This document shows positions 7,247 through 55,590 of a stretch of DNA of 64,000 bases, one piece after another; position 1 is the stretch's first letter, and every line of letters begins with the position of its first letter. Origin of the DNA: Massalongia carnosa (Eukaryota); the NCBI GenBank assembly GCA_965645245.1, contig OZ287074.1, positions 124,001 through 188,000 of the forward strand, written 5' to 3'. Both the position numbers and the translations under genes were made by a program. The notes beneath the pieces were generated by a model, which did no database searches, was not told the DNA's origin, and saw only the letters and a program-made list of their open reading frames with translations.

Positions 7247-7272
7247 GCATTGGAAGGAAGGGAGAAGGTACT
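5125..7272 (+). repeat. Tandem array of 17 x 126-bp (42-aa) highly conserved TPR units
   Basis: Unit GPEHPDTLTSVSQLGSVLSxQGKYEEAEAMxRRxLxGxEKVL counted 17 times; DNA is nearly identical between units; the last unit is interrupted by TGA. Confidence 0.95.
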
Positions 7273-7831: not shown

Positions 7832-8176
7832 TGTCATGGAGTGACTGGGCACCTGCCAGTTAGTTCATTGAATCAACCTTAGCTGCTTGAACGAAGCACT
7901 AGCCGGTTAGCCGATCCGAAAGGAACTAAGCTTAATCCGGTTCAAAGGTAAGTGTTCCGACTATCAATAGTGTCATGGCGATAGTTTCATGCTAGGGACT
8001 TGGGGAAATTGGATCAACGGCTGGATTGGGACTAGTTCCGTTCGCCAGAGTCTTATACTCGCCCACGTTGGATTTTCTGTTTCTTTTCTCCTTGTCGAAC
8101 GTCTTGTCCACCTAGCTAGACAATCAAGTAACACGTTTGCACCACCTGAATTCCTACCTGACCTCGCACCGTGACA
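7832..8176. mobile_element. Solo LTR (345 bp), inverted twin of 9202-9546
   Basis: TGTCA...TGACA; flanks ATGAT / GATCA; appears to be the exact reverse complement of 9202-9546. Confidence 0.9.
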
Positions 8177-9201
8177 GATCATAGGGGGAGGGGGATAGTC
8201 GCCAGCAGCAAATTGCTACGTTTCTACCAAGACCGAAACAATCGTCTTGATGGAGCTTTTACTTTATGAGCCTTTCTCAGACTTACAATTGCATTAAAAG
8301 CTATATAATACGTAGGTGGAATTCTATTTATCAATAAGGATTTAATGAATCCATCTAAAGCCCTAGCTTCATGCTCTTTCAGTATCTGATTTTCTACCCC
8401 CTTTTTAACCCTTCTTTTTTCTGTCCTTCTTTCGGATGACGACGAACAAAAGACGTCAACGTTTTAACGTTGACATTGTAGATTTTTGACGCAGCAGCCT
8501 TTCTTACTTCGGGATGATCAATCAGAAATTGCTTCGCTTCTTCCAATCTTTCCATGGGGCTGAGAGTGGAAACCAAGATTGAGGCATTATTTTCCAAGGT
8601 ACGAAGGGAGGTTGAAAATTTCTTTTCGAAAGTTGCAAATGCGATAATAAAGGATCGGAAAGTGAGGGGGGGGGATAATTTTAATGACAACGATGACGAC
8701 GACGATAATTTCAAGCTTTTTACAATATTAAGTAATGATTGATCAATGTGGTTGAGAGTAAAAGGTGAAAAATGGTCAAAATTTCAGTTTGAATAGATGT
8801 AAATCGTTTTCCCCGACTAGGAGGCGACGGCCTCCGAGTCGTATCCCGCTAAGCGAGCCGACGATTAATCGTCCGAATTTCAAAACATCGACAACTTAGG
8901 AATGCGCTTGATCAGCTTATTAATCGACCTAAATGTCATTTCTTTGGTACATAATAGGAGGTGCGGAGCCATATGCTCTAACGAGAGGTGTTAGTGTATC
9001 CGGCCAAGCGGTGCGAAAAAATGTTGCCACACCAAAACTCATCAGTACGCATAAAACTACACAACTATCAAAGCTTCAACATAATATAGAAAAGCAACAA
9101 CAGATGAACCAGTAAAATAGACTTGATAGAGTAATAGATTTATATGTTCAAATTCACCTTAACTTTTTTGAAATGTATTACTTAACGATATAGCCTATCA
9201 T

Positions 9202-9546
9202 TGTCACGGTGCGAGGTCAGGTAGGAATTCAGGTGGTGCAAACGTGTTACTTGATTGTCTAGCTAGGTGGACAAGACGTTCGACAAGGAGAAAAGAAACA
9301 GAAAATCCAACGTGGGCGAGTATAAGACTCTGGCGAACGGAACTAGTCCCAATCCAGCCGTTGATCCAATTTCCCCAAGTCCCTAGCATGAAACTATCGC
9401 CATGACACTATTGATAGTCGGAACACTTACCTTTGAACCGGATTAAGCTTAGTTCCTTTCGGATCGGCTAACCGGCTAGTGCTTCGTTCAAGCAGCTAAG
9501 GTTGATTCAATGAACTAACTGGCAGGTGCCCAGTCACTCCATGACA
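9202..9546. mobile_element. Solo LTR (345 bp), inverted twin of 7832-8176
   Basis: TGTCA...TGACA; flanks ATCAT / TGATC. Confidence 0.9.
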
Positions 9547-9689
9547 TGATCATCATACATGGTCAGGAAATCATGGCAACGTGGTTTTCGGAGGATTTGC
9601 CGGTGGGCACGCGTATTGTGCCTTCCGATAGTGGTTTCATTTCTGATAAGATAGCAATTGAATATTCGAAGCATCTCATTCAAAATTCG

Positions 9690-14881: not shown

Positions 14882-15237
14882 TGTGGAAGGATGAACTGGG
14901 TGGTGTGCGTGGTCTACTACAGCTAGGAGTGCAAGAGAACAAACAAACAAGAGACGAGCAGAACAATAGAATAAGAACAATAGCTAGACTGATCACTGTA
15001 AGCCTCGCGCCTCGTGCCTGATGCCTCGTGCCTGTGAACTGTATGTGTTGATGCTATATGTTGTAGTTATTGCTACGAGCATGCTTACTCTAAAAGGAAA
15101 AGAACTATCTATAACTAAACTAAAAGAAATACTGTCACCTGACTTCCCGCTATCTTTACCGAGTATCAGCCGAAAAGAACTAACTCCCGAACCGCTAGCA
15201 ATTTGAATTTAGAGTATCACCGCTCCACCCGCCTACA
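14882..15237 (-). mobile_element. Solo LTR, same family as 42392-42694 (opposite orientation)
   Basis: TGT...ACA; extensive reverse-complement identity to 42392-42694; possible 4-bp TSD ATGT. The left boundary is ambiguous by 3 nt. Confidence 0.8.
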
Positions 15238-15568
15238 ATGTCATAATGCACTGCTTTTGTTTCCTTTTCGAGCGCTTGATGCTGCAAGATACGACGATAA
15301 AGACACACCAGTCGAGTAAATTATCAAGATTTGGTTTAAATAATGTTATATAAGTTCTCCCATATTGTCGTCCTCCCTCGCAGAGTCTTCATCTGCTTGA
15401 GAATGTGCCCAGTTTCCTCTTCGTATCATTACTCTATGCACCTGTTCCACCCGATCCAAAAATGAACTCTATTCCTCCTCAAAGCTCAATACGGCCTTGG
15501 GATTGTTGATACCGTATACCAGAACGACTCGCCATCTTTCATTCCCACAGCAGTCTGCCACTCCTTCC

Positions 15569-16055: not shown

Positions 16056-16568
16056 AACACATCTAAATAGACGATCCTATAGCGTCGATAACTGGCGAGC
16101 GGGTGACGACCGAGATTTTAAGTAAATTCGGCTTTTCGCCAAAGAATGAGCAAGTTGACGCTATCATGACTTTGGCACAAGATCAAAAGGATCTAATATT
16201 TATCGCCAAGACTGGATTTGGAAAGAGTATTATCTTTCAAGCTATGCGATTAATGTTCTCTTGTCTTAAGATCGCTTTAATTATCATGCCTCTCAAGACC
16301 TTAGAAGCTCAACAGTGCAAGAAGTTGAGCGTTATCGAGGGATGCAAGCCTTTCGTGTTGGACGGTGATAGTAATAATTCTTCTAATTTAAAGTAAATTC
16401 GTGAAAACAATTATACGCATGGTGTGTATTCAAATTATGATTGATTTAAATATAAAAACTTACTCGTTGATATGAATAGTTTTTATTAGCCCAGAGATAG
16501 CGACGTCAAAGCTGTTTAAACAGGAGGTTCTGAGGCATTCAAGTTTTTTCTTGAATTTATGTCTTTTA

Positions 16569-17597
16569 TGTAATGGGCTACGAGACCAGTAAGCTTATCA
16601 CGAGCGACACTGATCTCGAAAGGGGAAATGCTCAGCGTGAGAGGAGGAAGATAGCTACTACGTGCTAGTCTCCGAGAGTATACGTGATCCAAAGAACTAA
16701 TGGATGTGGAAGTGCTTAGACCAAGAGATCTCGTCCGAGACCCAAACGTAGGTTGTTCATAGAATAAAGACTAATTGCTAACGAATACTACAATATTCGT
16801 TCTGATATTTATCCTACTCACCCCAAGCCTATAGCCTTGGGAGCCTTGGAGCCTTAGGAGCCTTGCAAGCCTTGGGAGTCTTGCGAGCATTACAGCCTTG
16901 CAATCCACATCCGACTTTATCGCATTACATCCAACCATCCCTCAGGATCCATCCACGAACTCGGCGTTCGCTGGATCATCTAGTCAGCCTCGAGCAGCCT
17001 TCTAGACCTTCCCTTGCAAGGTAGAACAATTCTACCCCCGGCTAGATCCCTCACTACATGCCTCAGGCTATGTAGCTTCATTTCGCCGTCACCACTACCT
17101 AGTGATGGAAGGTTACCTCCGACTGAATACCTCGCTACACTGCGGACCTGCCTCTAAACACAAGGTCTAGACAACGAGGTCATGTAGGTTCATTCAGCCG
17201 ACATCACTACCAACGTAGTAATAAAGGTTGAAGCTGAAGTTTACACCGGGGAGCCTAGCTCAAGCTGCGTCCAGCGAGCCGTGCCTCCTGCTACCTCTCT
17301 TGAACCCTCAAGAGATCCAGTAGCTCCGAGTAGGCCAGTAGATCCCATATAGAGTTCCTTGGCGTCTCCACAGGAGTCCGCCTACACTCCATGGCAATCT
17401 ACCACCACGGCCTCGACAGGTGTTTGATCTGTAAGTAGTCAAGAACGTGATAACAATAACTCCGAAGTTTCGGGGCAAGATGGCAGTGTGTCAGCCTCGA
17501 CGGCTTATGCGACTTCGTACTACGGCATGGTCCACGCTAGTTAATCCCGCAACCGCCATAGGCGATCACGTATCCCTCTAGCGCCATCCGTATTACA
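16569..17597 (-). repeat. 3' LTR of the Gypsy element
   Basis: Direct repeat of 23058-24086. Confidence 0.95.
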
Positions 17598-17689
17598 ATT
17601 GCCTCCCCTCTAGGACGCGAGCTCCGCCGAGCGTGTAGTAGATAGTAACGACACGTTAGGTGGGTGGTATGATGTGTATGGCAGGCGGT

Positions 17690-17925
17690 GAAAAACCTCC
17701 TTCCTTGTATGATAGCAAGGAGGAAAACCGGCCTCCGAAGTCAATGAAAAACCTCCTAACCCAGTGGGAACTGAGGAGGAAAACCGACTTTATCGAAATC
17801 GATGAAAAACCCTAAAACCCTGATAAGACAACGGGAGAACGTAGGGAAAACCGACTTCTCAAGATCGATGAAAAACCCTTAAACCCTGATAAGATAACGG
17901 GAAAACGAAGGGAAAACCGATCCTA
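17690..17925. repeat. Degenerate tandem repeats (about 55-65 bp) in the Gypsy 3' UTR
   Basis: Recurring TGAAAAACC...GGAAAACCG units, about 4 copies. Confidence 0.6.
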
Positions 17926-17964
17926 GATTCCATAGCAAGTGGCAGGAGAGAAACCCCGAGGCTA

Positions 17965-20900
17965 CTACTTCTTCGCCTTCTTGCTCCGAGTACTGGTAGC
18001 TTGTCGGCCGCGTTTCCTCTTGCCTTGAGGCTTAACAGCCGGCTTAGCCATTGGCGGTGCGGTGTCAATAGGAGGAGAGGTTGCTGTCGGCTTGGTGGGG
18101 TTACCCTCATGGTAGGCTTTGACGATCTTCCGTAAGTGTTTGATCGCTGCCGCCGGTTCCCACGTACTTTCATCCTCTGGATAGCCCTTCCAGGAGACCA
18201 GATAGTAGAGGCCTGGTAGGTGGCCAGCTTCTGACTCCTTGGCATAGACCGCGCTATCCAAAATGCCTTCAACCTCGTATTCCTCATCGTTACCAGCTTC
18301 GAATTCCAGCTGTTCCGCGATCTTCTCGTCCACCCGCCCCTTCCTTGTGGTGTCCTGCTCCAGTAGTGATACATGAAAGACATCATGGATGCGCCACCGC
18401 TTTGGAAGCTCCAGCTTGTAGGCTTGCTTGCCCACTGGTTGCAAGACACGGAATGGCCCAAAGAACTTAGCCTCTAGCTTGCGATTGCGTTTGGTCTTAA
18501 TATATTTGCTGTTCAACCAAACTTTATCGCCAGGTGCATAGCTCCGTGGCTTGGTTCCTTTGTTGTGGGCCTTTGTCTGCCATGCTTGTGCGTGCTGAAG
18601 GTTTTCCTTACAGATAGCCATCAAGTCCTTTAGTTCTGCAGCTAGTTCATTTGCTGACTTGGACCTGGAACGGGGGTCGATGTCTTCCTCATATGAGACA
18701 CGGGGGTGGTAGCCACAGTTGAGCTCGAACGGCGTATGCCCAGTACTCGCGTTTTTCGCATTGTTGTACGCGAACTCAGCCATCGGAAGCAGGCGCGCCC
18801 AGTCGTCTTGTTCGTAGTTGACGAACGCCCTAAGATAGGCTTCCATGGTGCTGTTCTGACGTTCGGTCTGCCCATCGGTCTGTGGATGGAACGCGGTAGA
18901 GAGGCGTCGCTTGATGCCTAAAAAGTAGCACAAGGAAGACCAGAACTTGGAAGTGAAAACTGAGCCGCGGTCGCTGACGATAGAGTCGGGCAAGCCGTGG
19001 TGACGAACTACCACGTCTATGATTACCTCTGCTAGCAATGGCGCAGTGATCGTTGTTAGCACTGGCTCATAGTGCACCATCTTCGTAAGCCGGTCGACGA
19101 TAACCAGGATCGAATCGTAACTGTCGCGCTTCCAATACGCAGATTCAGGCAACCCCGTCACGAAATCCATAGACAAGTCCTTCCAGCGATGAGTTGGCAC
19201 TGGCAGTGACTGTAGGTCTCCGTAAGGCTTGTGTCTGACCGCTTTAGAAGATAAGCAGACGTCGCAACCCTTGACATAGCTCTCAACATCGCGGCGGAGA
19301 GTCTCCCAGAAGTACTTTCTCGCAATGAGTTCTCGCGTCTTTTCGATGCCGAAGTGTCCTGCTAATGGATCATCATGATGCCTACTGATTAGCTCAGTTC
19401 TGAGGATCTCAGGGACATAAGGCAGGCTTTGATAGTGCAAAATCCCCTCGGTGTCTTCCCAACCATCTTTTCCAAGCTTCTCTGCTCTGATCGTCTGAGC
19501 TTGGGTATCTTCCTCCTGCAACTCTTGCAACCTCAACCTCATGCCACCAATGCTGACTTTGTAAGGACCTTCTGAGGTCAAGTCTTGGCGGAGCGTATCC
19601 CAAAACTGACGCAGTTGAGGGAAGACGTGCGTTCCACAGATAATGATGTGGTGTGGAGGGGTGAGATGCTGAGTACTAGTGATACCAGAGATGCTGGCGC
19701 TGGTCAGCGAGGACTGCAGTCGGTGAAGGATTCGAGTATTCTCAGCTCGAAGCACTTCCTCTTCGCCTTGGCTCCTCTGAGGATAGCGAGATAAAGCATC
19801 GGCAGCTCCATTAGCCTTGCCTTGACGATAATCGATGCGGAAATTGTAACGAGAGAGTTCTTGCGCCCAGCGAACCTGGCGGGGGCTTAAACTCTTCGTA
19901 TCCATAAATCGCCGCAGGTTGTTGTGGTCTGTAAGCACGAGGACTTCATGCTTACAACCTTCGAGATAATGCCTCCAATTCTTAAAGGCTTCAACGATGG
20001 CCAGTAGTTCCCCATCGTGAGTTTCGTAACGAGTTTCTGCAGGAATCATTTTCCGAGAAAAATACGCTACTGGGTGCCATTGGCCGGTTTCGATATCCAG
20101 CTGGCTAAGAACGCCACCTATGGCGTAACCCGAGGCGTCCGTCTCAAGTCGGATGTGGCGCTCAGGGTCAAAATGTCGGAGGATCGGTGCTTCAGTGAAC
20201 GCCTGCTTTAATTGGGCAAAGGCTAACTTAGCGGCAGGAGTTAGAAAACAAGATTCTTCCGCTCCGCGCCTCGCCTTTGGGGATGGCCCAGTGTTGGCTA
20301 CCAAGTTTGTTTTAAGCATTGAGGTGAGTGGAGCAGCAATCTTGCTGAACCCCCGGATGAACCGCCGGTAGAAGTTGGCGAATCCCATAAACACCTGGAC
20401 GTCTCGTACTGACTTGGGTTCTGGCCAGTTCGTGACAGCTTCAATCCTTTCCTCTTCCATACGAATTCCTTGGCCAGAGACAACGTAGCCTAGGAAGCGA
20501 ACCTCATCTTGATGAAAACGACACTTCTTTAGATTGGCAAAAAGTCCATTTTTTCGGAGGTTCTCCAAGACCCACTTAACAGCCTCAACATGGCCTTGGC
20601 CTACGTCCTCAGTATAGATCAGGATGTCATCTAAGTATACGATGACAAAGACGTCGAGTTTCTCTGCTAGAATTTTGTTGATATAGCCCTGGAAACTAGC
20701 TGGGGCATTGGAAAGGCCGAAGGGCATAACCTGATACTCGAAGTGACCATATCGAGTCCTGAAGGCCGTCTTCCATTCGTCACCCTCTCGAATTCGCATC
20801 CGATGATACGCGTTCGTGAGATCTAGCTGCGTAAATCGCTTGGCACGGCCTAGTCGATCAAGCGACTCTCCAATCAAGGGTAACGGGTACCGATTCTTGA

Positions 20901-21852
20901 TCGTCAGGGTATTGAGTCCTCGATAATCCACACACAGGCGGAGACTACCGTCCTTCTTGCGGATGAACAGTATAGGAGCACCAGCCGGAGACTGAGAAGG
21001 CCTAATAAAACCGCTGGCTAGATTGGTTTCAATGTAGGTTTTCAGTGTCTCTAGTTCCATAGGACCTAGGCTGTAGATTGGGCCATAAGGTGGCTGCTTA
21101 CCATCTACTAGATCGATAGGATGGTCGTTAAAGCCGGTGTGCTCCGGTAGTTCCGCTGCAGATTCAGGGGAGAAAACGTCAGAGAAGTCGGAATATTCAA
21201 CGGGGATATTGGCCTCCTCGCTCACTAGCGAGGCTACTTGGGCCTGGCGAGAGGCGTGGATCGGCATGGACGATGGCTTGCTTACGGCCATTACATGCAC
21301 CACATATGCCTCATCGTCTCCTCCAAGGACCGTCTCCGCGAACTCTTCCTTATCGATGATCTCCACACGTCTGGTTGTTGGTAAAGCCTCGGCAGCTGTG
21401 TAAGTTCTCCAGGCAAGCTCTCGCTCTGGAAACCGTATATCCACACTGCTGAGTGTAAGAAAAGGCATTCCCAGGACCACCTCCAGGCTAATATTAGCCA
21501 ACAAGAAGGTTTCCTGGAAGAATCGAACCTTCCCTAGCTTATCCTCGACCGAGAACCCTGCGATAACCATACCGAAGGTATCCAGGTGAGATCCATCAAT
21601 CTTCTGCGCCCCAACATCTGTTTCCCTAACACGAAGCCCTAGTTTCGCGGCATAAGCGGGGTGCATTGCATTGACCTCGCTGCCGGAATCTATCAAAGCT
21701 TCTACCTCGTCTTGATCCTTCCTCAAACGGACCGGATATCGAATACAAGGAACCCGCTCAAGATTAGCCTCCTTACTAGTTTCAGTCAAAGGCGCGGAGG
21801 TTGCCAAGACCGATACTAGTTTTTTGAAGCGTCCTTCTTGGACTCGCGACAA
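17965..21852 (-). CDS. pol: Pol polyprotein: protease-RT-RNase H-integrase-chromodomain
   Basis: LIDSGS, YLDD, TDAS...ELLAI...TDH...ADALSR, HHCC plus DDE integrase, GPF, chromodomain YEVEGILD...YLVSWKGY...TWEP. Probably expressed by -1 frameshift at A AAA AAC TAG at the end of gag. Confidence 0.96.
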   Translation of the reverse strand: MSRVQEGRFKKLVSVLATSAPLTETSKEANLERVPCIRYPVRLRKDQDEVEALIDSGSEVNAMHPAYAAKLGLRVRETDVGAQKIDGSHLDTFGMVIAGFSVEDKLGKVRFFQETFLLANISLEVVLGMPFLTLSSVDIRFPERELAWRTYTAAEALPTTRRVEIIDKEEFAETVLGGDDEAYVVHVMAVSKPSSMPIHASRQAQVASLVSEEANIPVEYSDFSDVFSPESAAELPEHTGFNDHPIDLVDGKQPPYGPIYSLGPMELETLKTYIETNLASGFIRPSQSPAGAPILFIRKKDGSLRLCVDYRGLNTLTIKNRYPLPLIGESLDRLGRAKRFTQLDLTNAYHRMRIREGDEWKTAFRTRYGHFEYQVMPFGLSNAPASFQGYINKILAEKLDVFVIVYLDDILIYTEDVGQGHVEAVKWVLENLRKNGLFANLKKCRFHQDEVRFLGYVVSGQGIRMEEERIEAVTNWPEPKSVRDVQVFMGFANFYRRFIRGFSKIAAPLTSMLKTNLVANTGPSPKARRGAEESCFLTPAAKLAFAQLKQAFTEAPILRHFDPERHIRLETDASGYAIGGVLSQLDIETGQWHPVAYFSRKMIPAETRYETHDGELLAIVEAFKNWRHYLEGCKHEVLVLTDHNNLRRFMDTKSLSPRQVRWAQELSRYNFRIDYRQGKANGAADALSRYPQRSQGEEEVLRAENTRILHRLQSSLTSASISGITSTQHLTPPHHIIICGTHVFPQLRQFWDTLRQDLTSEGPYKVSIGGMRLRLQELQEEDTQAQTIRAEKLGKDGWEDTEGILHYQSLPYVPEILRTELISRHHDDPLAGHFGIEKTRELIARKYFWETLRRDVESYVKGCDVCLSSKAVRHKPYGDLQSLPVPTHRWKDLSMDFVTGLPESAYWKRDSYDSILVIVDRLTKMVHYEPVLTTITAPLLAEVIIDVVVRHHGLPDSIVSDRGSVFTSKFWSSLCYFLGIKRRLSTAFHPQTDGQTERQNSTMEAYLRAFVNYEQDDWARLLPMAEFAYNNAKNASTGHTPFELNCGYHPRVSYEEDIDPRSRSKSANELAAELKDLMAICKENLQHAQAWQTKAHNKGTKPRSYAPGDKVWLNSKYIKTKRNRKLEAKFFGPFRVLQPVGKQAYKLELPKRWRIHDVFHVSLLEQDTTRKGRVDEKIAEQLEFEAGNDEEYEVEGILDSAVYAKESEAGHLPGLYYLVSWKGYPEDESTWEPAAAIKHLRKIVKAYHEGNPTKPTATSPPIDTAPPMAKPAVKPQGKRKRGRQATSTRSKKAKK

Positions 21853-22967
21853 GTGCTTGCGTAGTGTCCCTTCTTGTTGCAGTTGAAGCAGGTGATTTGG
21901 GACACGTCCCTGCTGGTGCCATTGGAAGTGTTGGCACCGGTGGCCGGAGTCGACTCCGAGCCTTTCCGATCTCGAGCTTGATCAAGACGTCGCTGCCTTT
22001 TCTTTTCTCTCCGAGCTTTCTTGTCGGCAATCTCGCTGTTCTCTGGGCGCGAGGAGTTTGGTTGCTTCGGACCCGACGTTTTGGGCTTTTCGCTAGGCTC
22101 GTCTCGAGGGTCTCGAGTAGAGGTCTGGGGTTTGGCCACAGTGGCATGAGCGGGCCGGTTTCCATGTGGACAACGCTGATCCATCTCACGAAGGATCGAT
22201 TGCGGCTGCAGGCTAGCTTTTGCCTCAGCATCGATCGCTTTTTCGACCAGCTCCTCCCAACTGTCTAGTTCCCTTCCTCGTTGTTCCATCTGGGCCTTTA
22301 TCGAAGGCTTGAGGCCTTCACGAAAGAACCGAATAAGGTCCGACTCCTCTGGAGCTCCCTCAGCATCAAACTCCAGGAGTATAGATTGCAGATGTTCCAG
22401 GTGAGAAGCCCAATCCTGAACTTCTTCTTGTTGATACTGTGAGTCCCGCTTGATCCTACTCCAGGTTGCGTCCACAAAAGCCCTAGAGTCCCCAAGATTC
22501 TTCCGAAGGAAAGCCTTGAACTCGATCCAAGACAAAGGTCCTACCTCTTCGCCTTGGCTTCGACGTTTGTGCTGGTGCCAACGAAAGCTAATCCGGCCAC
22601 GAAGGAAAGATGCGGCAAAGGGGGTACGGTTAGACCCAGTGGCGCCGGCGGTGTCAAAGTGGTCTTCGCATTGTTGGCAGAAATGGTAACACTCCATATG
22701 GGACTTCCCATAGTAGAGATCCGGGAACCGAGCTTTCAACTGACCTTCTCGGGGGCCTTCATGTCGACTGCCTTGTGCCTGGAGGAACGACTCCATGCAG
22801 AGCTTTGTGATTCTCTGCAGATCTTCCTCGGTGTATTTGGCAGGGCCCGTAGCTTCCTCAGTGCTTGGTGCCGGTGTCTCTTCCGAAGGCCTTGAAATAT
22901 CTTCTGCCTGGGGAGATCTTGTTGGACCTTGCCGAACGTTCCTGCGAGGGCGAGAGCTTGAAGACAT
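21816..22967 (-). CDS. gag: Gag with CCHC zinc knuckle
   Basis: 383-aa ORF with retrotransposon gag motifs (FREGLKPSIK) and CFNCNKKGHYASTC; overlaps pol. Confidence 0.93.
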   Translation of the reverse strand: MSSSSRPRRNVRQGPTRSPQAEDISRPSEETPAPSTEEATGPAKYTEEDLQRITKLCMESFLQAQGSRHEGPREGQLKARFPDLYYGKSHMECYHFCQQCEDHFDTAGATGSNRTPFAASFLRGRISFRWHQHKRRSQGEEVGPLSWIEFKAFLRKNLGDSRAFVDATWSRIKRDSQYQQEEVQDWASHLEHLQSILLEFDAEGAPEESDLIRFFREGLKPSIKAQMEQRGRELDSWEELVEKAIDAEAKASLQPQSILREMDQRCPHGNRPAHATVAKPQTSTRDPRDEPSEKPKTSGPKQPNSSRPENSEIADKKARREKKRQRRLDQARDRKGSESTPATGANTSNGTSRDVSQITCFNCNKKGHYASTCRESKKDASKN

Positions 22968-23057
22968 CGTTTGCGGAGTTCAAGAACAGATGGCTCCACT
23001 AGCTAAGCTTCCTCCAAACGGGCTGGCTGACCCGTAGGGTATGAGAGCAATTAGAAT

Positions 23058-24086
23058 TGTAATGGGCTACGAGACCAGTAAGCTTATCACGAGCGACACT
23101 GATCTCGAAAGGGGAAATGCTCAGCGTGAGAGGAGGAAGATAGCTACTACGTGCTAGTCTCCGAGAGTATACGTGATCCAAAGAACTAATGGATGTGGAA
23201 GTGCTTAGACCAAGAGATCTCGTCCGAGACCCAAACGTAGGTTGTTCATAGAATAAAGACTAATTGCTAACGAATACTACAATATTCGTTCTGATATTTA
23301 TCCTACTCACCCCAAGCCTATAGCCTTGGGAGCCTTGGAGCCTTAGGAGCCTTGCAAGCCTTGGGAGTCTTGCGAGCATTACAGCCTTGCAATCCACATC
23401 CGACTTTATCGCATTACATCCAACCATCCCTCAGGATCCATCCACGAACTCGGCGTTCGCTGGATCATCTAGTCAGCCTCGAGCAGCCTTCTAGACCTTC
23501 CCTTGCAAGGTAGAACAATTCTACCCCCGGCTAGATCCCTCACTACATGCCTCAGGCTATGTAGCTTCATTTCGCCGTCACCACTACCTAGTGATGGAAG
23601 GTTACCTCCGACTGAATACCTCGCTACACTGCGGACCTGCCTCTAAACACAAGGTCTAGACAACGAGGTCATGTAGGTTCATTCAGCCGACATCACTACC
23701 AACGTAGTAATAAAGGTTGAAGCTGAAGTTTACACCGGGGAGCCTAGCTCAAGCTGCGTCCAGCGAGCCGTGCCTCCTGCTACCTCTCTTGAACCCTCAA
23801 GAGATCCAGTAGCTCCGAGTAGGCCAGTAGATCCCATATAGAGTTCCTTGGCGTCTCCACAGGAGTCCGCCTACACTCCATGGCAATCTACCACCACGGC
23901 CTCGACAGGTGTTTGATCTGTAAGTAGTCAAGAACGTGATAACAATAACTCCGAAGTTTCGGGGCAAGATGGCAGTGTGTCAGCCTCGACGGCTTATGCG
24001 ACTTCGTACTACGGCATGGTCCACGCTAGTTAATCCCGCAACCGCCATAGGCGATCACGTATCCCTCTAGCGCCATCCGTATTACA
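23058..24086 (-). repeat. 5' LTR of the Gypsy element
   Basis: Direct repeat of 16569-17597. Confidence 0.95.
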
Positions 24087-25955
24087 TTTTAGCTCTTGAT
24101 AAGATGCATCTTGTATCCGAATGGCGAGATTTCCGGCCCGAATACTTCAATCTCGGTGTGCTTCGTACACGATTACCAGACGGTATTCCTTTTCTGGGTG
24201 CGTCTGCAACGCTGGATCTAAAAACCCTAGAGAGCGTTAAAGATCGCTGTGGCTTTGATAACGAAAGTACTGTTATTCGAACAGCGCTTGATCGTCCAGA
24301 GATATACATACAGACAAGCAGTCTACAGAGGCCTATGAACAGCAGTATCGATCTTCAACATCTTTTACCAACACGGGCTGAGAGTCCTTTTGATATTCCG
24401 AAAACGATTATCTTCATGCATTCAATTTCATCTATCAAAAAGGCGTGTGCGCTAATGAAAGTATGGATGAATCAATTGTCCTATCCAATTGAGGCCGCTA
24501 GTTGGGTCGCGCCTTTCTTTTCCTACATGGCCACCCAAGACAAAGAAAGGATTGCGGCTCTCTTCGAAATGCCCTCGAATCAATGTAAATTTCCTCGAAT
24601 CCTGATCGCAACGGATGCATACGGGCTTGGTATTGATAAACCAGACGTTATGAGAGTTACGCAATTGGCTGCTACCCTCGTCAATGGCGAAGCTATATCA
24701 ACGTTTAGGTCGTGCTTTGCGTTGCGGTCGAGGACAGGCGCATTTTACTCTTTTGCATCCTTCTTGGTGCATAGGTCCAAGAAGCGGATCAAAAATGGAC
24801 GAACAGGACGGATCTGATGACGCGGGAATCGAGATTGAATCCAAGGCCAGTAAACGCTGCATCAATCAAAAGGATGCTGATCGGCGACGAGATATACCAC
24901 CGGGTCTTCGGGAGATAATCAATGTGCCTTCAGATGGTTGCGTTCGAGGTATTGGCTTGAATTTCTTCAATGATAAAGTGTATCCAACGTCGGCCTATGT
25001 TAAGCCGTAACCTTGCTGTTCAATTTGCGATCCAAGTTTTCAGACATCAATAGCCGCCAATGAGATGTTAAATAGAACGGCCGAGCGTGACTCGTCTAGG
25101 CGGCCTTGGTTTACCCTTAAACTTCGAGAATGGAGGGAGGCCAAGGCGCAGGAAAAGTTCCCAAATTCACATATGCGATACTTCCCATCATTGATAATGC
25201 CCGATGAGGTACTGAAGTCTTTGACCACTTGGGCGGATCAGATTGTGGACGAGCCCACCATGCGGCGATGGATTGGTAACACATGGGCTGGTATTAGGCC
25301 CTACGGCACCGAGCTTTTAGAAATTTTAAAGCGGGCTCAAGCGATGAGATTAGACGAGGGAGACATGTTCGGGGAATGGAAACGACACAACGACATAAAG
25401 CGAAAACGATTACCCAGCCTAACATGCAACTCCGCCAGTATTGAATTTGAGGAACGGAGGAAAAACTGGATGATCAAACAAGGATATATGTCGAGAAAGG
25501 TTTTTAAGAAGCGAAATGCGGTCAAGAAGAAAGTCTCGAAGGAAAGCGAGAGCACAGAGCCATCGGGCGAGAATCCTGCGCCTAATCACAATATCTCCGA
25601 TGCGGCGCTCGTTGTTGACAATGTTGATGCTCTTAAATTATCGATGAAGGCATCAAAGACCAAAAAAGTGCCTCGAGATCCTATGGAAGCGTTGTCGCTG
25701 AATGTACCCATGGCCCTTCCTCCGACACGATCTAGACAAGAAAGACAGTGCCCCGTCCGCTACCTCTGACTCTGTAAAGCCGCGCGGCACGGATTAACAT
25801 GACTAGGCTATCTCGTGGTATCGATGATTTAATCATAAAAACATACCGCCAGATATCTCGAGACGGGCCATTGAAATGACAGGGCTGTCGGGGACCTGCT
25901 GTGTTTCATCGACAAAATTGGGCTCGGCTTCATACTTACCCTCAAGGTCGTCTGT

Positions 25956-26469
25956 TGTCAGGGCATAGAAGGAATAGGGGCTAAGCTAACTAAGCGGGGC
26001 TTAGTTCTACGGCTAGGCTTAGTCATATGGAAAGCAGTTGGTCTGCGTTACGCGGCTGGTATCTACTGCCGAGAGTATAGTACGAGCGATCGAGATATAC
26101 GAGGATGCTCGTACGATTAGTGAGCGAATGGTACGATACAGTCAGCACAGTGTCCACGATACAGTCAGCACAGTGTCTACGATACAGTCAGCACAGTGTC
26201 CACGATGCAGTCAGCAGAGTGTTTAGCCGGCTTATCCGGTAGGAGTAATGGGCGGTCAAGATAGTTACAGTATCAAGGGCCCAGAGGGTCAAAGGCTTCG
26301 GTCCGGGTATATAAGGAGGCTGCTCGAGGGAGATGCAATCTTCAACGATTAGTCTTCCGCTTTACCTACATACTTCTTTTAGTATATTAGTATAGCAATC
26401 ATTAGTGTCTTCACATTGTCACATATCCCTAGGCCTGGTGTCTGATAATCGCCAGGTCTGACTCTTACA
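25956..26469 (+). mobile_element. Solo LTR (514 bp) with an internal 23-bp tandem repeat (about 4 copies, 26133-26223)
   Basis: TGTCA...TTACA, TSD TCTGT; TATATAA near 26309; repeat unit ACGATACAGTCAGCACAGTGTCC. Confidence 0.88.
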
Positions 26470-26521
26470 TCTGTTGAAATTTCTTTTGAAATTTCTTCGG
26501 AAAGATACTGCTGATTGTATT

Positions 26522-28200
26522 CCGAGTCACAGACATATTCGAAGTAAGAACCGGAATACCACAAGGCTCTCCTATTTCTCCTATCCTCTATCTTTTCTAT
26601 AATGCAGACCTACTAGACATATGTGAAAGACCCGGAACCAACACGAGCGCCATAGATTTCGTAGATGACATAAACGTGTTAGCATATGGGAAAAGCACGG
26701 AAGAAAATTGCAAAACGCTGGAGGAAATTCACAAGAAATGCGAAAGAAGGGCCATTCGGCACGGATCGGTTTTTGCACCGAAAAAGTACGAACTGATACA
26801 CTTGTCAAGAAATCCGAAGAAATTTAACATGACTGCTGTTGTTAAGATAGAAAACAGCATCATTAAACCAAAAACAGATATTAGAATCTTGGGACTCCGA
26901 ATCGACACCAAATTGAAATGGGGTCCACATATCAGAAAGATTCAGGAAAAACTGACAAAACAATCCAGGGCACTGACAAAAATTTCTATCTCCACATGGG
27001 GCGCCACCTTTCCAAAAGCCCGCCAGATATACACCGCCGTAGTTCGCCCGGCCATAACGTATGGTTCTACTATATGGCACATGCCAAAGGATATAAAAAA
27101 ATCGAACGGCATCTCAAACAAGCTAGCCGTCATACAGAATAAATGCTTACGAACTATAGCTGGAGTATTTAAGGCGACCCCAATAGCGGTATTGGAAGCA
27201 GAAACGTACATAGCTCCTATTGATATACATCTATATCAACTTCAGACTCAGGCTAGACATCGCTTGTGTCAGGAAGGTCAAAAGAAATTCATCATTAATG
27301 CATGCAACTCTATTGCAAACAAACTCAGAGGCCGGGCTGGACGCAAACGAGCTCCTGCGAGTACCCCGGGAATGCTGAAACACGCATGGGCCAAGAAAAT
27401 AATATCGGACACACATAAAATCGCGTCGCCGGTAGCGCACCCACCATGGGCCGAACCCCCCCCGAATACAGCTCGAGAAATTGAAGAGGCGCGGGCGGCT
27501 CAAGGTAAAATAACCGCAAAAATTAAAAAACGATATATAGACGCATGGCAGACCTCATGGAAAACATATCAGAATCGCACATCTACGCCTAATCCAGCAC
27601 AGGCAGCCCCACTAACCAAAAAACGCATCAAATAACACAAAACTCTAGCCAAAGCAGAAAGCGCTCTAACTATCCAGATACGCTCAGAAAAGATAGGCCT
27701 AGCCGACTTTTTATTTAGACGTCACGTCCCCGACGTCCTAACACCGAACTGTCCATGTAGCTGGCCGAAACAAACCGCGAAACATGTAATCATGTTTTGC
27801 AAACTTAACAGCAACAGACAGTCAATGTTACGTTCTATAGGCACAAACAACTATCGACTGATTACAGACTGATCCAGAGCGATGAAGCTAGTCACCGCTT
27901 GGTTAATGAAGACCGGCTTACTGACTCAGTTCTCAATGACAGCACAGCATTTATATCATTGACAACCACACGTCAAGTCGCTAAAAGGCGACTTTCCTTT
28001 CCTTTAACCTGTCACCGGTCAACTGTTCTTCAGATAGATCCCTCGACCGAGACTCGAAAAGTATTCGGAGAGATGTCGGATTACTTGGCTTTTCTTCCTT
28101 AAAAGGTTTTCCATGTATTATATAATTCCATAGATTTGCCCGCATGGGCCGGCCTTCGGCCGGTACCACATCGGAATAAGAATTATCATCATCATCATCA
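26522..28200 (+). mobile_element. 5'-truncated Tad1-like LINE (RT C-terminal half + CCHC)
   Basis: GIPQGSPISPILY, FVDD, LGLRIDTKLKW, CPCSWPKQTAKHVIMFC; in-frame stop at 27633; (CAT)n 3' tail; 14-15-bp TSD (A)CTGCTGATTGTATT. Confidence 0.93.
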
Positions 28201-29631
28201 CTGCTGATTGTATTTTAATACATTTTCTCCAAGTTTCTTCAATCCTCAACATAAAGATTAGCTGTTGGATTAGTTGAAAATCGATCATAGCTTCTTTTAC
28301 AGAGTGATTTATGCGCTAGTGCCGTAGCCATGCCCCACACATCCTCCGCGGCCGATTTTGCTGGATGCCTTGAAGAGTTGACTCTTCCAAAGTAAAATTC
28401 AACGATTTCTTTGAGCTTCATAAGGTATGGACCGTTGAGTGCCTAGTTCGCGAGCAAGGTGTCACTATACTTTGAAAAATAAGATCGCTCGTGTTGGAAC
28501 GTCTTGAGATTATTGTTTAGTATCTCTAAAAGCCGATCAGTCTCAAAACTCGACTCTTCGTCACCGCGTAAATTGACAAGACTATTCATTAAAATACTTT
28601 CCTGTAGCCTTATGGTCGCTGCGGAAGAATCAATCGCATGAAGGATGTATAGAAGAGCTTGCGCATATTTCGGGGTGCCAGCTACGCTTGCCTGAAAGAT
28701 CACTGTTGCGTGGCGCAATGCGTGACGAAGTAGTCCAATATCCGCATATTTGATTGCGTATCGAAGTGTTAGATACGATACAACGTGATCACAGAAGTTC
28801 TGATGATTCTGAAATTATTGATCAAGCGTTGGAGGAAGCATATCTAATGAAGTTGAGGGTAATTCCGCGTGAAGTTTGCGAGATATCCTGCCCAACATAT
28901 TCATCCAAGTGCCATCCTGCCCGCAAGTCTGCGCTGTGAGCCACGAAATAGTTGCTTCGATTCGCTGCGGAGCATATCCATCCTTTCGTAAAAACCTAAT
29001 CCACGTCCCAACGATTCTAGCTTGATAGCTCTGAATGATCAGATCCTCTGAGGCCTGGAAATCGTTCGGCTGCACGACACGAGCGCGACTCCACCGATCG
29101 GCGGCATATTGAAGAGTCGAAGGATCAACCGGCTGGGCCTCTCCCCAATGTATTTTTATGAATAAGCTGCAGCATGTTAAAGCGAAGATGCCATAACCCT
29201 AATCCCGGTAAAATCCAGTCGAACCGATCGAAAGATTGCTCCGATATCCCACGACGTAATTCCTTGACAGATTGCATTCTCGACCATGTCTTGAGGTCAC
29301 CATAAATAAGCCGAATGACGCTCGCAAACGTCGAGTCATCCTCCTTGAACTTGAACTGTCGCACAAATATATCCTCCAATATTTGAATATTATTAGATGT
29401 TGTGCTCTCATCCTTCATGACTGGTTTGATAGGAATGTAATTGGTCTTGTATTTTTTCATCTTATTCAGCACGGGCATTGCAGTCGACCAGGGATGTTGA
29501 ACGTCGCCAATCTCTGGGCCATAAAGCGCTCGAATCGCTGACTCTAGATGATGAAGACGAATCTAGGTGCGCGGTGCATTAGCGGTTGAGCGCGGTATAT
29601 ACATCTCGTCCTGTATTGAACTCACCTGCAT

Positions 29632-30115
29632 TGTAATAGGGTAGGCCTAGTATGCGTTCGTTGAACGTAAGACTGGCCTATGTGGCTATGTGGGATACGT
29701 ACAGCCAAAACAACCACCAAGACAATAAGGTCCCGCCTAACCCAGTTAGGCATAGTGTGGGGACTTAACTTATTATGGAGGTGTTTTCGTAGTACACGAA
29801 GTATCCCCTCGCCTCGCCTCACCTCCCCTAGCTCACCTGCCTAGTCTTATCTACCCGTGTCTTTCGGTGTCCGAAGTATTTCGGAGTCCGAAAATACCAG
29901 GTAGTATGGGCAAGGTATGGAAGAAGAGCTTAGGTTATGGATTGTCCTATCCTATATAGATCAATGATCAAGCACTTTAAAAGGGTAGCATTTAGTCTAC
30001 CCTTTGACCCGACCCAACCTATTTGTACCTCTATTGTGACCATCACGTTGTGTAGCCCCTGTGGATCCCATCTTCCAGTAGTGAATGCCTGCTGGGAGAA
30101 GGTCTCCCCGTTTCA
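29632..30115 (+). mobile_element. Solo LTR (484 bp) inserted in the Academ-type transposase
   Basis: TGTAA...TTTCA, TSD TGCAT; a second copy lies inverted at 45944-46427. Confidence 0.92.
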
Positions 30116-31552
30116 TGCATCTCGAGATCACCAGTCTCCAGCTTTCGCGCGATTCTTTCAGCTGATAAAAGATGCGTGGCGGGGCGCCACATATCCTGCC
30201 TCAAAGCGCCGGCATCGAATCCTTGCCCCTAGAAAATTAGAGCGGTAGTGATTGATCTGACGTCTCTATTATCCCCCGTGCGCTCTCCTCGTTTACCTTC
30301 TGCGAAGTCAAAGTTATCGTATGTCAAGATCATGTTTGAGCCTTGTCCTAGCATCTGAACCTTTCGTTCGGCCTCCTTAATCAAGGATAACATGCGCCGC
30401 TGCAGGGTAGTATATGACATCGTCAGGTCAAAATGACAGAGTGTATCTAGAACTCGCCGCCTCGCCCAACCTTGATAAATATAAAGGCCTAAGACGGACT
30501 GAATATTAGTCGCCTTATTAGGTCGCAATTTGTGACAAAGCATTGCCAATATAATGGTGTGCCGGCCGCTGGGAGAATCCAACGTCACATCGAGAGGTTC
30601 CTGCGGGCGAGCCTCGCGACAAACACTATCAATTAGCTCAAGCCATCGTGGCGCCAACTGCTTGGCGGCAGATGCAGCAAGTTTAATAGCCTCCAAGGTC
30701 CCAAACTCGACTGTCGCAGAGGGCGGCTGGAAAGGGCCAAAGGCTGCGTGATCTGCCAAAGCTTTGATTTCTTCACGAAGCGTATCCGCGGCCCAAACCC
30801 ATCCTCTCTCGCGAAGGATAGTGGATATTCTACCAGGCCCAATGAGGCTTGAAAAGTCTTCTTGCCGCACAATATCGACATAGACAAAATCGAAGAGCTG
30901 GCCTTGCGCCTTTCGCATACTATGACGGGCTCGATTCTTACAAAGTGTTGATAAAAAATCTTTTACCGACCAATTTAGAGAGCTCAGAAATTTAAGCACC
31001 TCAACCAGCTTGTCGTAATCTGATATGCGCCGGCGGTGGCGTTTCGCGCCTCCATTTTTCAGGTAAGGCAGGAGGGGAGGAGGAAGAGGGTGAGCTATCA
31101 TTACTGCCTGACGGCGATGGGTGGGGCCGCTTGAGCGCACCGGCGGGAGTCAAGGGACTTGTCCGTAGGTCGGTAAGTGGCGAGGAGGGGCCCCCGACAA
31201 GAGCCATGGCTTTCGTCAGATAGCTTCAATCTAGATAAATCATACAATATCATTGATTGGCCGTCATTATTCATATCATCATGATCTTTGTAACTCAATG
31301 TAATCGCGCTACATGAAAATAATCAGTTCATCAACCTCAAAATTGAGCGAAAGCGAGCAATTTATCACTTAATCGACTCTCACATCGCTTTAATAGCCTG
31401 ATAGTGGTTATAACACATGATTATCGAGTCATCCATCTTGAGAGGTGCGTTTTTGGTATAAAATACAGTCTCTGGTAAACTAATACAACCCTAATCATTG
31501 TATTAAATCCATAAAAGGAAAGGTTTCACTGCTGAAATTTTTATTACGCGGA

Positions 31553-31676
31553 TCTGGCCGTAATTTTGAGTTTTGCGCTCAGACGTGCTATCGCACTGAT
31601 GTTAGTCAGCAGCGACGCTAACCCGAAGGGGCTTAGCCGGCTCATAGAGCCACGCACGTCTGAGGTACTGAGGCAA
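31553..31676. repeat. Right terminal inverted repeat of the AcademH-like element
   Basis: Matches both ends of 54821-55502 (CCGTAAT..GAGTTTTG.GCTCAGAC ... CTAACCCGAAGGGGCTTAGCCGG ... GCACGTCTGAGGTACTGAGGCAA). Confidence 0.8.
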
Positions 31677-32500: not shown

Positions 32501-35500
32501 CGAGGTGCTTAGGGACAGTCCCCCCCCGACCGTCCCCCCCTGTGTAAATCTTTGCTAGTAAACAGCCATTTCACTGCTTATCCAGGGTGCGTACAAGCTA
32601 GTAATGCAACTACCAACAGCACATTAAACTCTTTTCGGTTTAAATCGTATGACGTGTTATTGCTACTAATAATTACCATACTCGGTCTGATAAAGCATAC
32701 CCTCACCCTCACCCTCACTTACCATTTGCCCTTGCCCTTGTCCTAACCCTTTGCCCTCCCTAAATCTCCCCTTCCACTTATGCTGTACCTCATATTATAT
32801 ATTTTACTACTCCTCATCGCGATGGAGTTCGATCCCACTTCTTTGGATGCACGGAAGCAACATGCCATTGCCCTTCTACCCCCACCTCACCTCCTCCCTC
32901 CACAAGAAAATGAGGTATTTTCGTCTTGGGAGGAGGCAAAGACTCGTCTTCAAGACTATGCCTTCATCCAAGGCTTCGCGTTGGTCACAGAAACTCACGA
33001 TAAGAAAAACCATTTAATCGTATTAGACTACACACGCCACCACAAAAGAGTTAGAACACTAGAAAAGTAGAGGAGGAAGACCAGGTGCGAGCCAATACCA
33101 AAGTTTCGTTCAATGAGTGCCCTTATCGCCTCCGTCTCAAAAAAAACAAAGACAATGCATGGAGACTAATAGTCACTAACTCCGAGCACAATCATGAGAT
33201 GGCCACTGATCCCTTTGCATTCAGAGAACATCATAGTAGGGACCCTGATCGAACCGATGCCCTAGATCAAGGGAAGAGTCTCCGTGCATCGTCAACCCAA
33301 TATGGCCAAGCAGCGAGAATATTAGGAATCCAAGGACTCCGTCTGTCGAGGAGCGATTATTATAATCTCGCTCATTCGGAGGGAGCTCACACGCCTGAAG
33401 AAGAGCTTTCTTTTGCCTTGGGCTCGTTGAAAGACAGGGGCTTTCATGTACGGTGTAAGGAAAAATATATTGTTAAGAATAATGTGCGTGAGAGACGGGT
33501 GATAGAACAATTTTTTTTTGTAATGCAGAGCAAATTAGGCTGGCTCGACAATTCGTGGGTGGGTTTTTATTAGAAACGGATGCAACGTTCAATACTAATA
33601 AATTGAACTTGCCTTTATCCGTTTTGGTTGGAATTACTAACACCGACCTTTCGTTTCCCGTCGCTTATTGTTATATAACTTCCGAATCGGCCGAATGTTT
33701 CACTTTTATTTTCGAATGTATGAAAGAGTTGATTTATCATGATGATTGCCCCGGGCCTGGGGTGATTCTCGGGGATTTTGCAGCTGGGTTGACTGTAGCC
33801 ATTCAAAGAAAAGCTAAAGCTCCGGCAATTGATCTCGATGCTGCATTGACCATTGCAAGAAAGGTCGCCGAAAATCTAAACCAATCAACGATGAAAGCGG
33901 GCGAGGAGAGATGCGTTTTGCAGCTGTGCACGTGGCATGCGGCCGAGGCAATAAAAAAACGACTGATCAAGGCAGGAAAATATCCCCAAGAAGTGCGCAA
34001 AAAGCTGGATACTCTGATTTGGGATTATATAAAATCCCTCACTATTGATGAGTTGGATGAGAGACGAAGAAAAATGCTGAATGAACTTCATCCCGCAGAA
34101 AAGGTTAGTAGTGATATATCAAATTAAATTTCAAGCGAGTTAGGGCTACTGCTAACGCTACCTCTTTCGCAGGATTATCTCATGAATTTCTATCAACGCC
34201 AAGAAATTCAATTCGTGCATGCATATACTACTAAACTCCCTAATTTAGACGCACATAGCACACAGCGTTCAGAAGGTCTACATTCATTGGTTAAAATGTG
34301 ACCAATAGAAATACTCCTATAAGACAATCGGTGCAGAAAATATGTGATGAGGTGCGGAAAAAACAATTAGATCAGGAGATTTTGTGCAATCAACAGCGAA
34401 TACGCAATCCTAGATTGATCGATAGAAATGCTTTTACGCTACTCATTAGGAAAATTACGCATCATGCCATTGGCCTCGTTTCAAGAGAACTCGATGCCGC
34501 CAAATCATTAGCTGAACGAATCCTTTCTATTGTCCCTGATGGTGGAAGCTGTATTTATGATTGTGAATTGCCTTTAAGGTACGGTCTCCCATGCAAATGC
34601 TGGTTGTATAAATGCATCATCGACTCGGTCCCTATTCCCGTTTCCCTTATCCACCCCCGCTGGTTTTTTGATGGCCCACCTTATGCGGTCTCTTGGCAAA
34701 TGACCTTCGATTTCGCTCGCGGCTCGGAGCCCGAGGTCGAAAAGATCGTCGATGAGGTCGAAGGGACGGGAGAGATTGAGGCGGATAAGGATGAGGTCGA
34801 GCTCGAAGAAGGCGTGTTGAGTGAGGATAGATTTCGCCGCGGGGGCCTTGATTTGCTACATTCTGTGGCATATCAATCTATTGACCTGCATCAATCAATA
34901 GAAGATTCTCATCTAAGGGAGGAGTACGCTCGCGAGCATTCTCACATCGTTGAAAAGTTCAATAAGAAATGGCAAAAGAAGGAGCTGGTAAGACCTCTCA
35001 TCCCCACCACATTCCCCGACGAAATTCGGCCCAAAGAAAACCTCATGTATAAGAAAGGAGGGAGTCGTCGACGTGCCTATACTGGTCGCGAGGCAGCTGA
35101 GGCTAGAGAAACTGAACAGCGACGTACTAGGCGAAAGGACTCTATTGAACAAGGGAGGAGGCTTAAATATAATAGATTGCGTGTTGGGGGCGACGATGAG
35201 GTTGAAGGTGAAACAGAAGGTAAAATTCACGATTTTGCAAAGTTATTGCGCTCGGGTCGGCTAATATTGGGTACAATAGGTTTAGGAGAAAACTTAGTTA
35301 TGGAGAGAATCAAAAACGCGTCTATCGTCTCCGACGACGATGACGAGGTGCAGTATATAAGCACTCAGCCCATTCTCGGTCGTTCTATGGATCCTATGCT
35401 TCCTTCAGATGACGATAATGATGTTATTTTTACATCAGAAGCCTTGTCGGATTCGCCCGAAGATATTGACGATGTGCTTGCCAAGCATAGTCAAAAAGCC

Positions 35501-53508: not shown

Positions 53509-53553
53509 GAATTCAGCTATTGAAGCTATTCTACTGCCTCCTGCACCAACCCC

Positions 53554-55502: not shown

Positions 55503-55590
55503 AGCTGAATAAGGTGAAGTTTGATGCTTAGTAAAGCAAGTGGCTATTTTTTAACCAGTAATTAGATGGCAGCAGGTGCTTATTTATATG

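Follow-up and report, generated by a model that had tools for sequence, protein, structure and literature searches.

A decayed, probably AcademH-like DNA transposon with convergent RecQ-like helicase and DUF6589 genes in a lichen-forming fungus

Analysis of a 64,000-nucleotide stretch of the Massalongia carnosa genome (contig OZ287074.1, positions 124,001–188,000; hereafter the window) revealed, at positions 16056–31676, the remains of a mobile element in which a gene for a RecQ-like helicase (+ strand) and a gene for a DUF6589 protein (− strand) converge. With high probability, this unit is what is left of a helicase-encoding (AcademH-like) DNA transposon of the Academ superfamily that moved by cut and paste and is now dead. 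The reading of the DUF6589 protein as an Academ core, and of the element as AcademH-like, follows from the match of four conserved blocks to a published Academ profile, from the linkage of the protein to a helicase gene, and from differences from the Kolobok superfamily. The window is a transposon-rich fungal stretch whose closest named protein relatives come from the lichen-forming Teloschistes exilis and Icmadophila ericetorum, and the element belongs to lichen-forming ascomycetes (host group Lecanoromycetes).

Structure and state of the element

Removal of four later insertions at their target-site duplications (TSDs), namely a Ty3/Gypsy retrotransposon, a fragment of a long interspersed nuclear element (LINE) and two solo long terminal repeats (LTRs), left 5397 bp of 16056–31676, within which the two genes converge (Table 1). 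An earlier reading of this DNA, made from its letters (the sequence-only reading), had proposed a unit of about 5.4 kb under four nested insertions, containing a convergent helicase and DUF6589-like transposase; both points were confirmed, the former by the separate TSD that each insertion carries and the latter by the open reading frame map and the Pfam matches. Its distance of 63 bp between the stops changed to 59 bp (25767–69 vs 25829–31) once the last transposase segment (25955–25829) was added, and its element end at 16056 turned out to be merely the approximate start of helicase coding, the left terminus not having been found. The Gypsy element retained an open frame of 1338 aa with protease, reverse transcriptase, RNase H, integrase and chromodomain regions (PR-RT-RH-INT-chromo; Pfam), and excising the solo LTR at 25956–26469 brought back the reading KEISTDDLEGKY as in the transposase relative P0001.

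Both genes are pseudogenes. The window copy is inactive: it is interrupted by four nested insertions, each gene has a minimum of 3 stops plus a frameshift, and the terminus on the helicase side is unrecognisable. Repeat-induced point mutation was ruled out as the source of the stops by dinucleotide indices of 0.59–0.84 and 1.2–1.5. An intact unit would measure ~6 kb and would start with the terminus TTGCCTCAG and a leader of ~0.5–0.75 kb, followed by a gene encoding a RecQ-like helicase (~700 aa) and containing a single conserved intron, a spacer of ~60 bp, a transposase gene of ~850 aa with a DUF6589 core on the other strand, a second leader of ~0.5 kb, and the inverted terminus.

Table 1 Coordinates of the element, its insertions and its relatives in the window
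Feature	Position	Strand	Details
Helicase gene, 5′ part	16067–16568	+	motif I AKTGFGKS from 16205; in-frame stop 16397–16399; short intron ~16427–16460
Ty3/Gypsy retrotransposon, later insertion into the helicase gene	16569–24086	−	1032-bp LTRs, 99.9% identical; TSD TTTTA 16564–68 / 24087–91
Helicase gene, 3′ part	24092–25769	+	motif VI QRLGRALR; Cys cluster 24939 and 25011–25034; stop TGA 25767–69
Spacer between the converging stops	25770–25828		59 bp (cf. 64 bp in the apparently intact L009)
Transposase gene, last coding segment	25829–25955	−	ends ...GGMFL, then stop; matches P0001 residues 436–477
Solo LTR	25956–26469		TG..CA; TSD TCTGT 25951–55 / 26470–74
Transposase gene, short coding segment between solo LTR and LINE	26475–26521	−	matches P0001 residues 422–439
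LINE fragment	26522–28199	+	5′-truncated, (CAT)n tail; RVT_1 E 3.5e-9; 15-bp TSD 26507–21 / 28200–14
Transposase gene, core (DUF6589)	28215–29631	−	92–100% identical to P0001 over aligned stretches
Solo LTR	29632–30115		TSD TGCAT 29627–31 / 30116–20; 96.6% identical to 45942–46435
Transposase gene, N-terminal part	30121–31149	−	block TYDNFDF, D at 30316–18; in-frame stop 30229–31
5′ non-coding region and right terminus	31150–31676	−	outermost letters TTGCCTCAGTACCTCAGAC at 31658–31676; subterminal inverted CTCAGACGTGC arm pair; fold z = −4.9
Miniature inverted-repeat transposable element (MITE), non-autonomous relative	54821–55502		682 bp; inverted ends ~160 bp; 8-bp TSD AGCTGAAT 54813–20 / 55503–10
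Second, diverged copy	61843–63544	−	62–71% nucleotide identity to the first copy; internal-deletion derivative

The DUF6589 protein and the Academ profile

Three pieces of the transposase gene matched Pfam DUF6589 (PF20231; E 4.8e-25, 8.9e-7 and 6.7e-20). Coding extends past ~28216 through 26521–26475 and 25955–25829, as it does in P0001 and in more distant relatives, and the C-terminal MF[FV][DE] is conserved in P0002, P0003, P0005 and P0006. In the core, the second aspartate (D2) lies in YGDLKT (29296–98), the histidine of GLWH at 29188–90, and the D and E of FETDRLLE at 28536–38 and 28524–26; this part also contains 3 in-frame stops, a frameshift at ~29155–29198 and an intron at ~29555–29620, and across the whole window gene, four or more stops and a frameshift were counted. 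The N-terminal piece of the window, including YDNFDF, aligned with the N-termini of full-length DUF6589 proteins; used as a query, this 306-aa piece retrieved no relatives among longer proteins.

With a profile built from 19 transposase relatives, 1647 representative clusters were retrieved at E<=0.001, the full-length members being 800–1050 aa long. Among 14 long members DUF6589 was the sole Pfam domain, and XPG was absent. The family profile gave nothing below E 0.4 against PDB sequences, the ESM Atlas returned DUF6589 clusters only and nothing once DUF6589 was skipped, and in a control comparison with hhalign the transposase and helicase alignments showed no relation.

The published RNase_H_Academ hidden Markov model (HMM) has 465 nodes, and in the parts of the supplementary file available its consensus comprises f-D-N-w-D at nodes 2–6, g-d-q-p-[l/t] at 190–194, g-f-F-H at 220–223, and W444, D450, E454 and K462 (Muszewska 2017, Suppl. 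File S1; PMC5751038). We scored these four blocks (37 nodes) along a 93-sequence alignment of the DUF6589 family with ~585 columns. Each block peaked exactly on a conserved motif of the family: block 1 on CWDNFD (mean 10.3 bits, z 7.9), block 2 on LQLVYGDQKT (6.7 bits, z 4.7), block 3 on GLFHLRMNFI (12.0 bits, z 6.5) and block 4 on YEMDRLNEFFN (6.3 bits, z 5.6). The blocks were collinear, with spacings of 159/38/206 residues in the family vs 184/35/227 HMM nodes. In the window's own pieces, 3 of the 4 blocks ranked first on TYDNFD, GLWHLRFNML and FETDRLLEILN, with block 1 on TYDNFD scoring 13.4 bits, the top of 699 positions. The candidate acidic residues picked out by the sequence-only reading (YDN, GDLKT and ETDRLLE) coincide with those blocks of the Academ profile that hold the conserved D, D and D-x3-E.

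Judged by these motifs, DUF6589 is the core of the Academ transposase, beginning just past the first D and running to the E; this first catalytic D is outside the PF20231 model, upstream of it. The window pieces and all relatives match PF20231, which Pfam labels as a family of unknown function. The one paper found to name DUF6589, a preprint on rust fungi, reads the family as a possible virulence or epigenetic factor, and the supplements of PMC10799480 contained no DUF6589, PF20231 or Academ. Were the assignment true, ~1,600 representative DUF6589 clusters would encode transposases rather than host or virulence functions, and the link to Academ should stop their annotation as host genes. The explicit DUF6589–Academ link and the description of the termini given below may be new; the window itself adds no new kind of element.

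Linkage of the two genes in other copies

Both genes are present in many near-identical copies within the same species: P0001 represents a 90% cluster of 72 members (among the 15 listed, the longest contigs were 1.3–3.8 Mb), and the helicase gene model P0038 represents 43 members. An alignment of 18 helicase relatives, used to scan contigs from soil and lichen metagenomes, yielded 13 loci falling into 7 independent groups. In four of these groups the sequence on the downstream side of the helicase extended to 2.5 kb or more, and three of the four (L007, L008/L009 and L011) carried a convergent DUF6589 gene. The fourth (L002/L003), in which the remnant of a helicase gene stands between inverted termini and a transposase is missing, is another deletion derivative. 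In L009 both frames are open, 64 bp separate the stops and the intron of the helicase gene is placed as in the window, and near-identical copies of this locus (99.7–99.9%) stood beside different flanks in the metagenomes. Helicase and transposase identities co-varied (r = 0.95; 15 pairs of 6 elements), and the same two clades were obtained for both genes. Linkage of the two genes elsewhere, which had been named earlier as a check, was thus found in most of the informative independent loci, and the proposal of a unit of transposase and RecQ-like helicase with a non-autonomous relative was upheld by the recurrent pair, the shared terminus and the MITE.

Within the window, the second copy consists of a partial terminal inverted repeat (61843–61913), an N-terminal transposase fragment (~62514–63183, +) and a helicase fragment (~63544–63107, −); ~370 bp of helicase abuts the N-terminal third of the transposase, with the junction near 63180–63230. 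The sequence-only reading had described a copy at 61860–63540 with the same layout. Its pieces of both genes and a partial terminal repeat were indeed present, in a copy that is an internal-deletion derivative.

Because the element has termini, a TSD, non-autonomous relatives, deletion derivatives and near-identical copies at different flanks, we regard it as a cut-and-paste element that was active recently.

The helicase gene

The piece at 16067–16396 matched Pfam DEAD (E 4.4e-7), and the piece at 24071–25769 matched Helicase_C at E 1.1e-4 and 22.9 bits, slightly below the Pfam cut-off of 23.5. The relatives begin ~20 aa ahead of the FGF motif, and the position of the intron is common to them and the window copy. 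Motif II has decayed to DKMH in the window (from 24095), in contrast to DExH in the relatives, and the 3′ part contains 2 in-frame stops and one frameshift near 24624–24664; this part is 92–96% identical to P0038. The best relatives of solved structure in the PDB were RecQ, WRN and RECQ1. DExH, ATDAYGLGIDNPDV, QRxGRAxR and four Cys were conserved across 18 helicase relatives, and motifs I, II, V and VI were retained across the family.

Cellular RecQ proteins were 24–30% identical to the transposon helicases and, unlike these, carry Pfam RQC, HRDC and Zn-binding domains. Neither RecQ_Zn_bind nor RQC of Pfam matched the transposon helicases, and HRDC gave sub-threshold matches (E 0.002 and 0.15) in 2 of the 5 scanned. 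The earlier call of a RecQ-like helicase with Zn and HRDC-like domains accordingly stood as to RecQ likeness, through the PDB relatives, whereas the Zn domain comes down to the four conserved Cys and the HRDC-like domain to the two sub-threshold matches.

At the C-terminus of the transposon helicases, a long, variable basic tail leads into a short basic motif that is conserved (window 25720–25766; P0040, P0042, P0049, P0052, P0054 and P0205). This motif reads PSRSRxxRxxPxRY in one clade and [ST]R-x-GR in the other, and [ST]R-x-[GR]R overall. Since the ATPase motifs and the basic C-terminal motif are kept throughout the family, the helicase is probably under selection as an enzyme.

Termini, MITE and target duplication

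The right end of the element lies at 31676 (TTGCCTCAGTACCTCAGAC read inward), and the MITE has the last ~140 bp in common with it. The 19-nt terminus occurred 3 times in the window (31658–31676, 54821–54839 and 55484–55502) vs 0.01 times expected, in agreement with the earlier claim of a right-end terminal inverted repeat shared with a MITE. The end point of the MITE was set by the divergence of flanks in other copies together with contigs departing from 55502: in run X3, 7 contigs passed into unlike sequence from this position, and many variants had the same ends and other middles. No empty MITE site was present among the joints listed for contigs of four runs, beyond which there were 78 more, and this carries no weight either way.

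On the helicase side, the helicase start in L001, L003, L006 and L009 is preceded, 0.54–0.75 kb upstream, by TTG[CT]CTC[AG]G, a sequence of the TTGCCTCAG type, and the flanks of different copies part exactly at the TTG of the terminus. The same kind of terminus is thus found on the helicase side at other loci and on the transposase side in the window. From the comparison with relatives, the helicase-side terminus of the window copy was expected near 15300–15550; BLAST, pattern and alignment searches found none. The sequence TTGTTTTAG at 14845 was rejected as a left terminus, as it matches 13 letters only, and 14882–15237 looks like another solo LTR. No right terminus was found in L009, where the best candidate (9630–9653) was no better than shuffles.

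The ends of the element contain the motif CCTCAG three times, once at the tip and twice as a subterminal inverted pair 70–100 nt apart. Subterminal inverted arms of the CTCAGAC type paired in 6 to 7 of the 8 folded ends (z −2.5 to −7.0), and the sequence of these arms varied between families yet remained complementary. Between the arms, small GC-rich stem-loops of the type CTAAGCCCCTTCGGGTTAG are nested once or twice per end in the window family (stem-loop ends: window 31530–31676, 54821–54967 and 55354–55502; L001 997–1146; L009 444–593; L006 66–215).

In L008 (2008–2063), two termini of the L009 type face each other over exactly 8 bp (...GAGACAA CTGTGCTG TTGTCTC...), and the sequence to the left of them is extremely AT-rich (12–37% GC over 1.8 kb). 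The 8-bp gap between these facing termini may or may not be related to the 8-bp TSD of the MITE.

Relation to known transposons and weighing of alternatives

To our knowledge, few transposon superfamilies have received as little study as Academ, one branch of which carries a helicase. The original Academ reportedly goes back to Kapitonov and Jurka in 2010 and to Yuan and Wessler in 2011, and AcademH is said to have been presented by Kojima in 2020 as a helicase-encoding Academ lineage. In AcademX, an XPG nuclease is fused to the transposase. Features of the Academ superfamily that we found comprise the RNase H-like (DDE) core blocks and the inverted ends with a target duplication; of those of AcademH, a helicase besides the transposase and the lack of XPG were found, and a 9–10 bp target duplication was not. 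According to a paper citing Kojima 2020, AcademH is already published for Basidiomycota, Ascomycota and Mucoromycota, and Academ profiles were mapped across fungi in 2017 (PMC5751038). The sequence-only reading had put the family forward as an undescribed system, which did not hold up, given that AcademH is in print, including from Ascomycota, and that Academ cores had been mapped in fungi.

Compared with AcademH as described in citing papers, the window family shares a DDE transposase with Academ-type blocks, a separate superfamily 2 (SF2)/RecQ-like helicase, inverted termini, and an occurrence in fungi including Ascomycota; it differs in an 8-bp TSD (n=1) vs 9–10 bp and in its lichen-forming Lecanoromycetes host. 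With AcademX and the original Academ it shares the same four RNase H-like blocks in the same order and at similar spacing (PMC5751038). Target duplications are given as 9–10 bp for AcademH and 3–4 bp for AcademX (PMC10045372). By the same source AcademX has an XPG nuclease and the short duplication, in contrast to the window family with no XPG, a helicase gene and 8 bp.

Several points weigh against the assignment to an AcademH-like element. The profile comparison covered 37 of 465 nodes, which were chosen after the likeness had been noticed and came from 6 of the 19 parts of the file. When the blocks were chained per protein, z was only 0.4–7.1 and one control helicase reached 31 bits; with this chained score only modestly above shuffles, the alignment-column test was used in its place. 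For 2 of the 6 gene pairs behind the r of 0.95, the two genes were matched solely by equally long contigs. At no single locus were the two genes enclosed by both termini, the window copy being without the left one and L009 without a recognisable right one, and the sole readable target duplication, AGCTGAAT at the MITE (n=1), is 8 bp vs the 9–10 bp reported for AcademH. The want of a locus with both termini also speaks for the view that helicase and DUF6589 genes are neighbors by chance or form a host gene pair, which we hold to be the remotest of the alternatives: the convergent layout with a ~60-bp spacer recurs at 30–35% protein identity, the deletion derivative in the window retains pieces of both genes, the helicase side at other loci has the terminus type that the transposase side has in the window, and both genes are multi-copy.

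The 8-bp duplication bears on another possibility, that the family is a helicase-bearing sister or variant lineage of Academ outside AcademH as circumscribed, marked by its 8-bp TSD and hairpin-prone ends. Besides the size of the duplication, the subterminal inverted arms in 6–7 of 8 termini, differing between families yet complementary, favor it; nonetheless it appears improbable, as a single duplication lies behind the 8-bp figure and the catalytic blocks match the Academ profile. A one-base difference in TSD length also falls within the spread seen inside other superfamilies. Membership in Kolobok, whose RecQ-encoding members are KolobokH in fungi and Kolobok-1_CCri, is less probable by far. 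The target duplication here is 8 bp, that of Kolobok is TTAA, and no Cys was among the conserved columns of the DUF6589 family alignment, whereas the Kolobok profile has 273 nodes and is Cys-rich at nodes 40–50, compared with ~410 aa from D to E in the DUF6589 family. Kolobok does resemble the window family in being a eukaryotic DNA transposon with a RecQ-type helicase, which in Kolobok-1_CCri is encoded on the complementary strand; the KolobokH helicase, however, is fused downstream of the transposase, in contrast to the separate convergent gene here, and the signature is C/DxxH vs G-L-[FW]-H in the DUF6589 family (PMC9587614). Among these readings, an AcademH-like transposon remains the one that we prefer.

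Possible mechanism and role of the helicase

In an intact AcademH-like element of this family, catalysis would be carried out by the D of YDN, the D of GDQKT and the E of D-x3-E in an RNase H-like fold, as the motifs suggest; in the numbering of P0101 these candidate residues are D290, D453 and E698. The transposase would bind the repeated end motifs of the CCTCAG type, as predicted, and excise the element, which would then be pasted in across an 8-bp staggered cut. After excision of P elements, cellular RecQ/BLM helicases channel repair into copying of the sister chromatid. By analogy, the role that we prefer for the transposon helicase, at somewhat short of an even chance, would be to steer repair of the emptied donor site towards such copying. 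Repair of this kind would restore the element and would also yield internal-deletion derivatives such as the second copy in the window and L002/L003. A somewhat less probable role would be to open the hairpin-prone subterminal palindromes for end binding and cutting.

A broader picture combines a distinct helicase-bearing Academ branch that is common and recently mobile in lichen fungi, 8-bp TSDs, hairpin-prone ends, a helicase working in transposition by opening those ends or by guiding donor-site repair that restores the copy, and DUF6589 clusters that are transposases; taken as a whole it is tentative and rather unlikely. The apparently intact L009, with both frames open, would lend itself to transposition assays in which the helicase is present or absent, and the termini (TTGCCTCAG tip, CCTCAGAC motifs and complementary subterminal arms) provide a concrete substrate for testing the action of the helicase.

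Other features of the window

At 3815–7243, a 1143-aa open frame with 17 TPR_10/TPR_12 units and a DUF7779 match looks like a fungal gene of the NLR (NOD-like receptor) type; its TPR units correspond to 126-bp tandem repeats (5111–7272) that are 90–95% identical to each other. A 364-bp inverted repeat (7824–8185 / 9194–9556; 98.6% identical, arms ~1 kb apart) is accompanied by more diverged inverted repeats over 8.2–14.7 kb, possibly a foldback-type element or one with long terminal inverted repeats. Transposon remains at 73–1338 and 33055–34124 comprise a DUF659 frame, which we take to be hAT-like, and a FAR1 + MULE frame (Mutator-like). Two frames at 47379–49639 (−) matched NDC10_II and GCR1_C, a pair that is presumably typical of Crypton tyrosine-recombinase transposons or genes derived from them.

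The region around the MITE contains two further elements. One, at 50305–54816, has RVT_1 and RT_RNaseH with no integrase match and is flanked by direct repeats of 179 bp with 99.4% identity; in runs X3 and X5 its contig cover far exceeded that of any other part, in X1 it had none, and it was nearly the sole part of 44–64 kb covered by the run of organism D. Ribosomal or transfer RNA as the cause of the deep cover at 50–54.8 kb was rejected, as there was no Rfam or tRNA match. The other is a Copia-like element at 55590–61483 with 224-bp LTRs that are 98.7% identical. Contigs of runs X1 and X3 joined 49904 straight to 61484, skipping 11.6 kb with the reverse transcriptase element, the MITE and the Copia-like element; the shorter side of this joint has only 24 letters, and either a repeat artefact or a real haplotype lacking the nested block may account for it.

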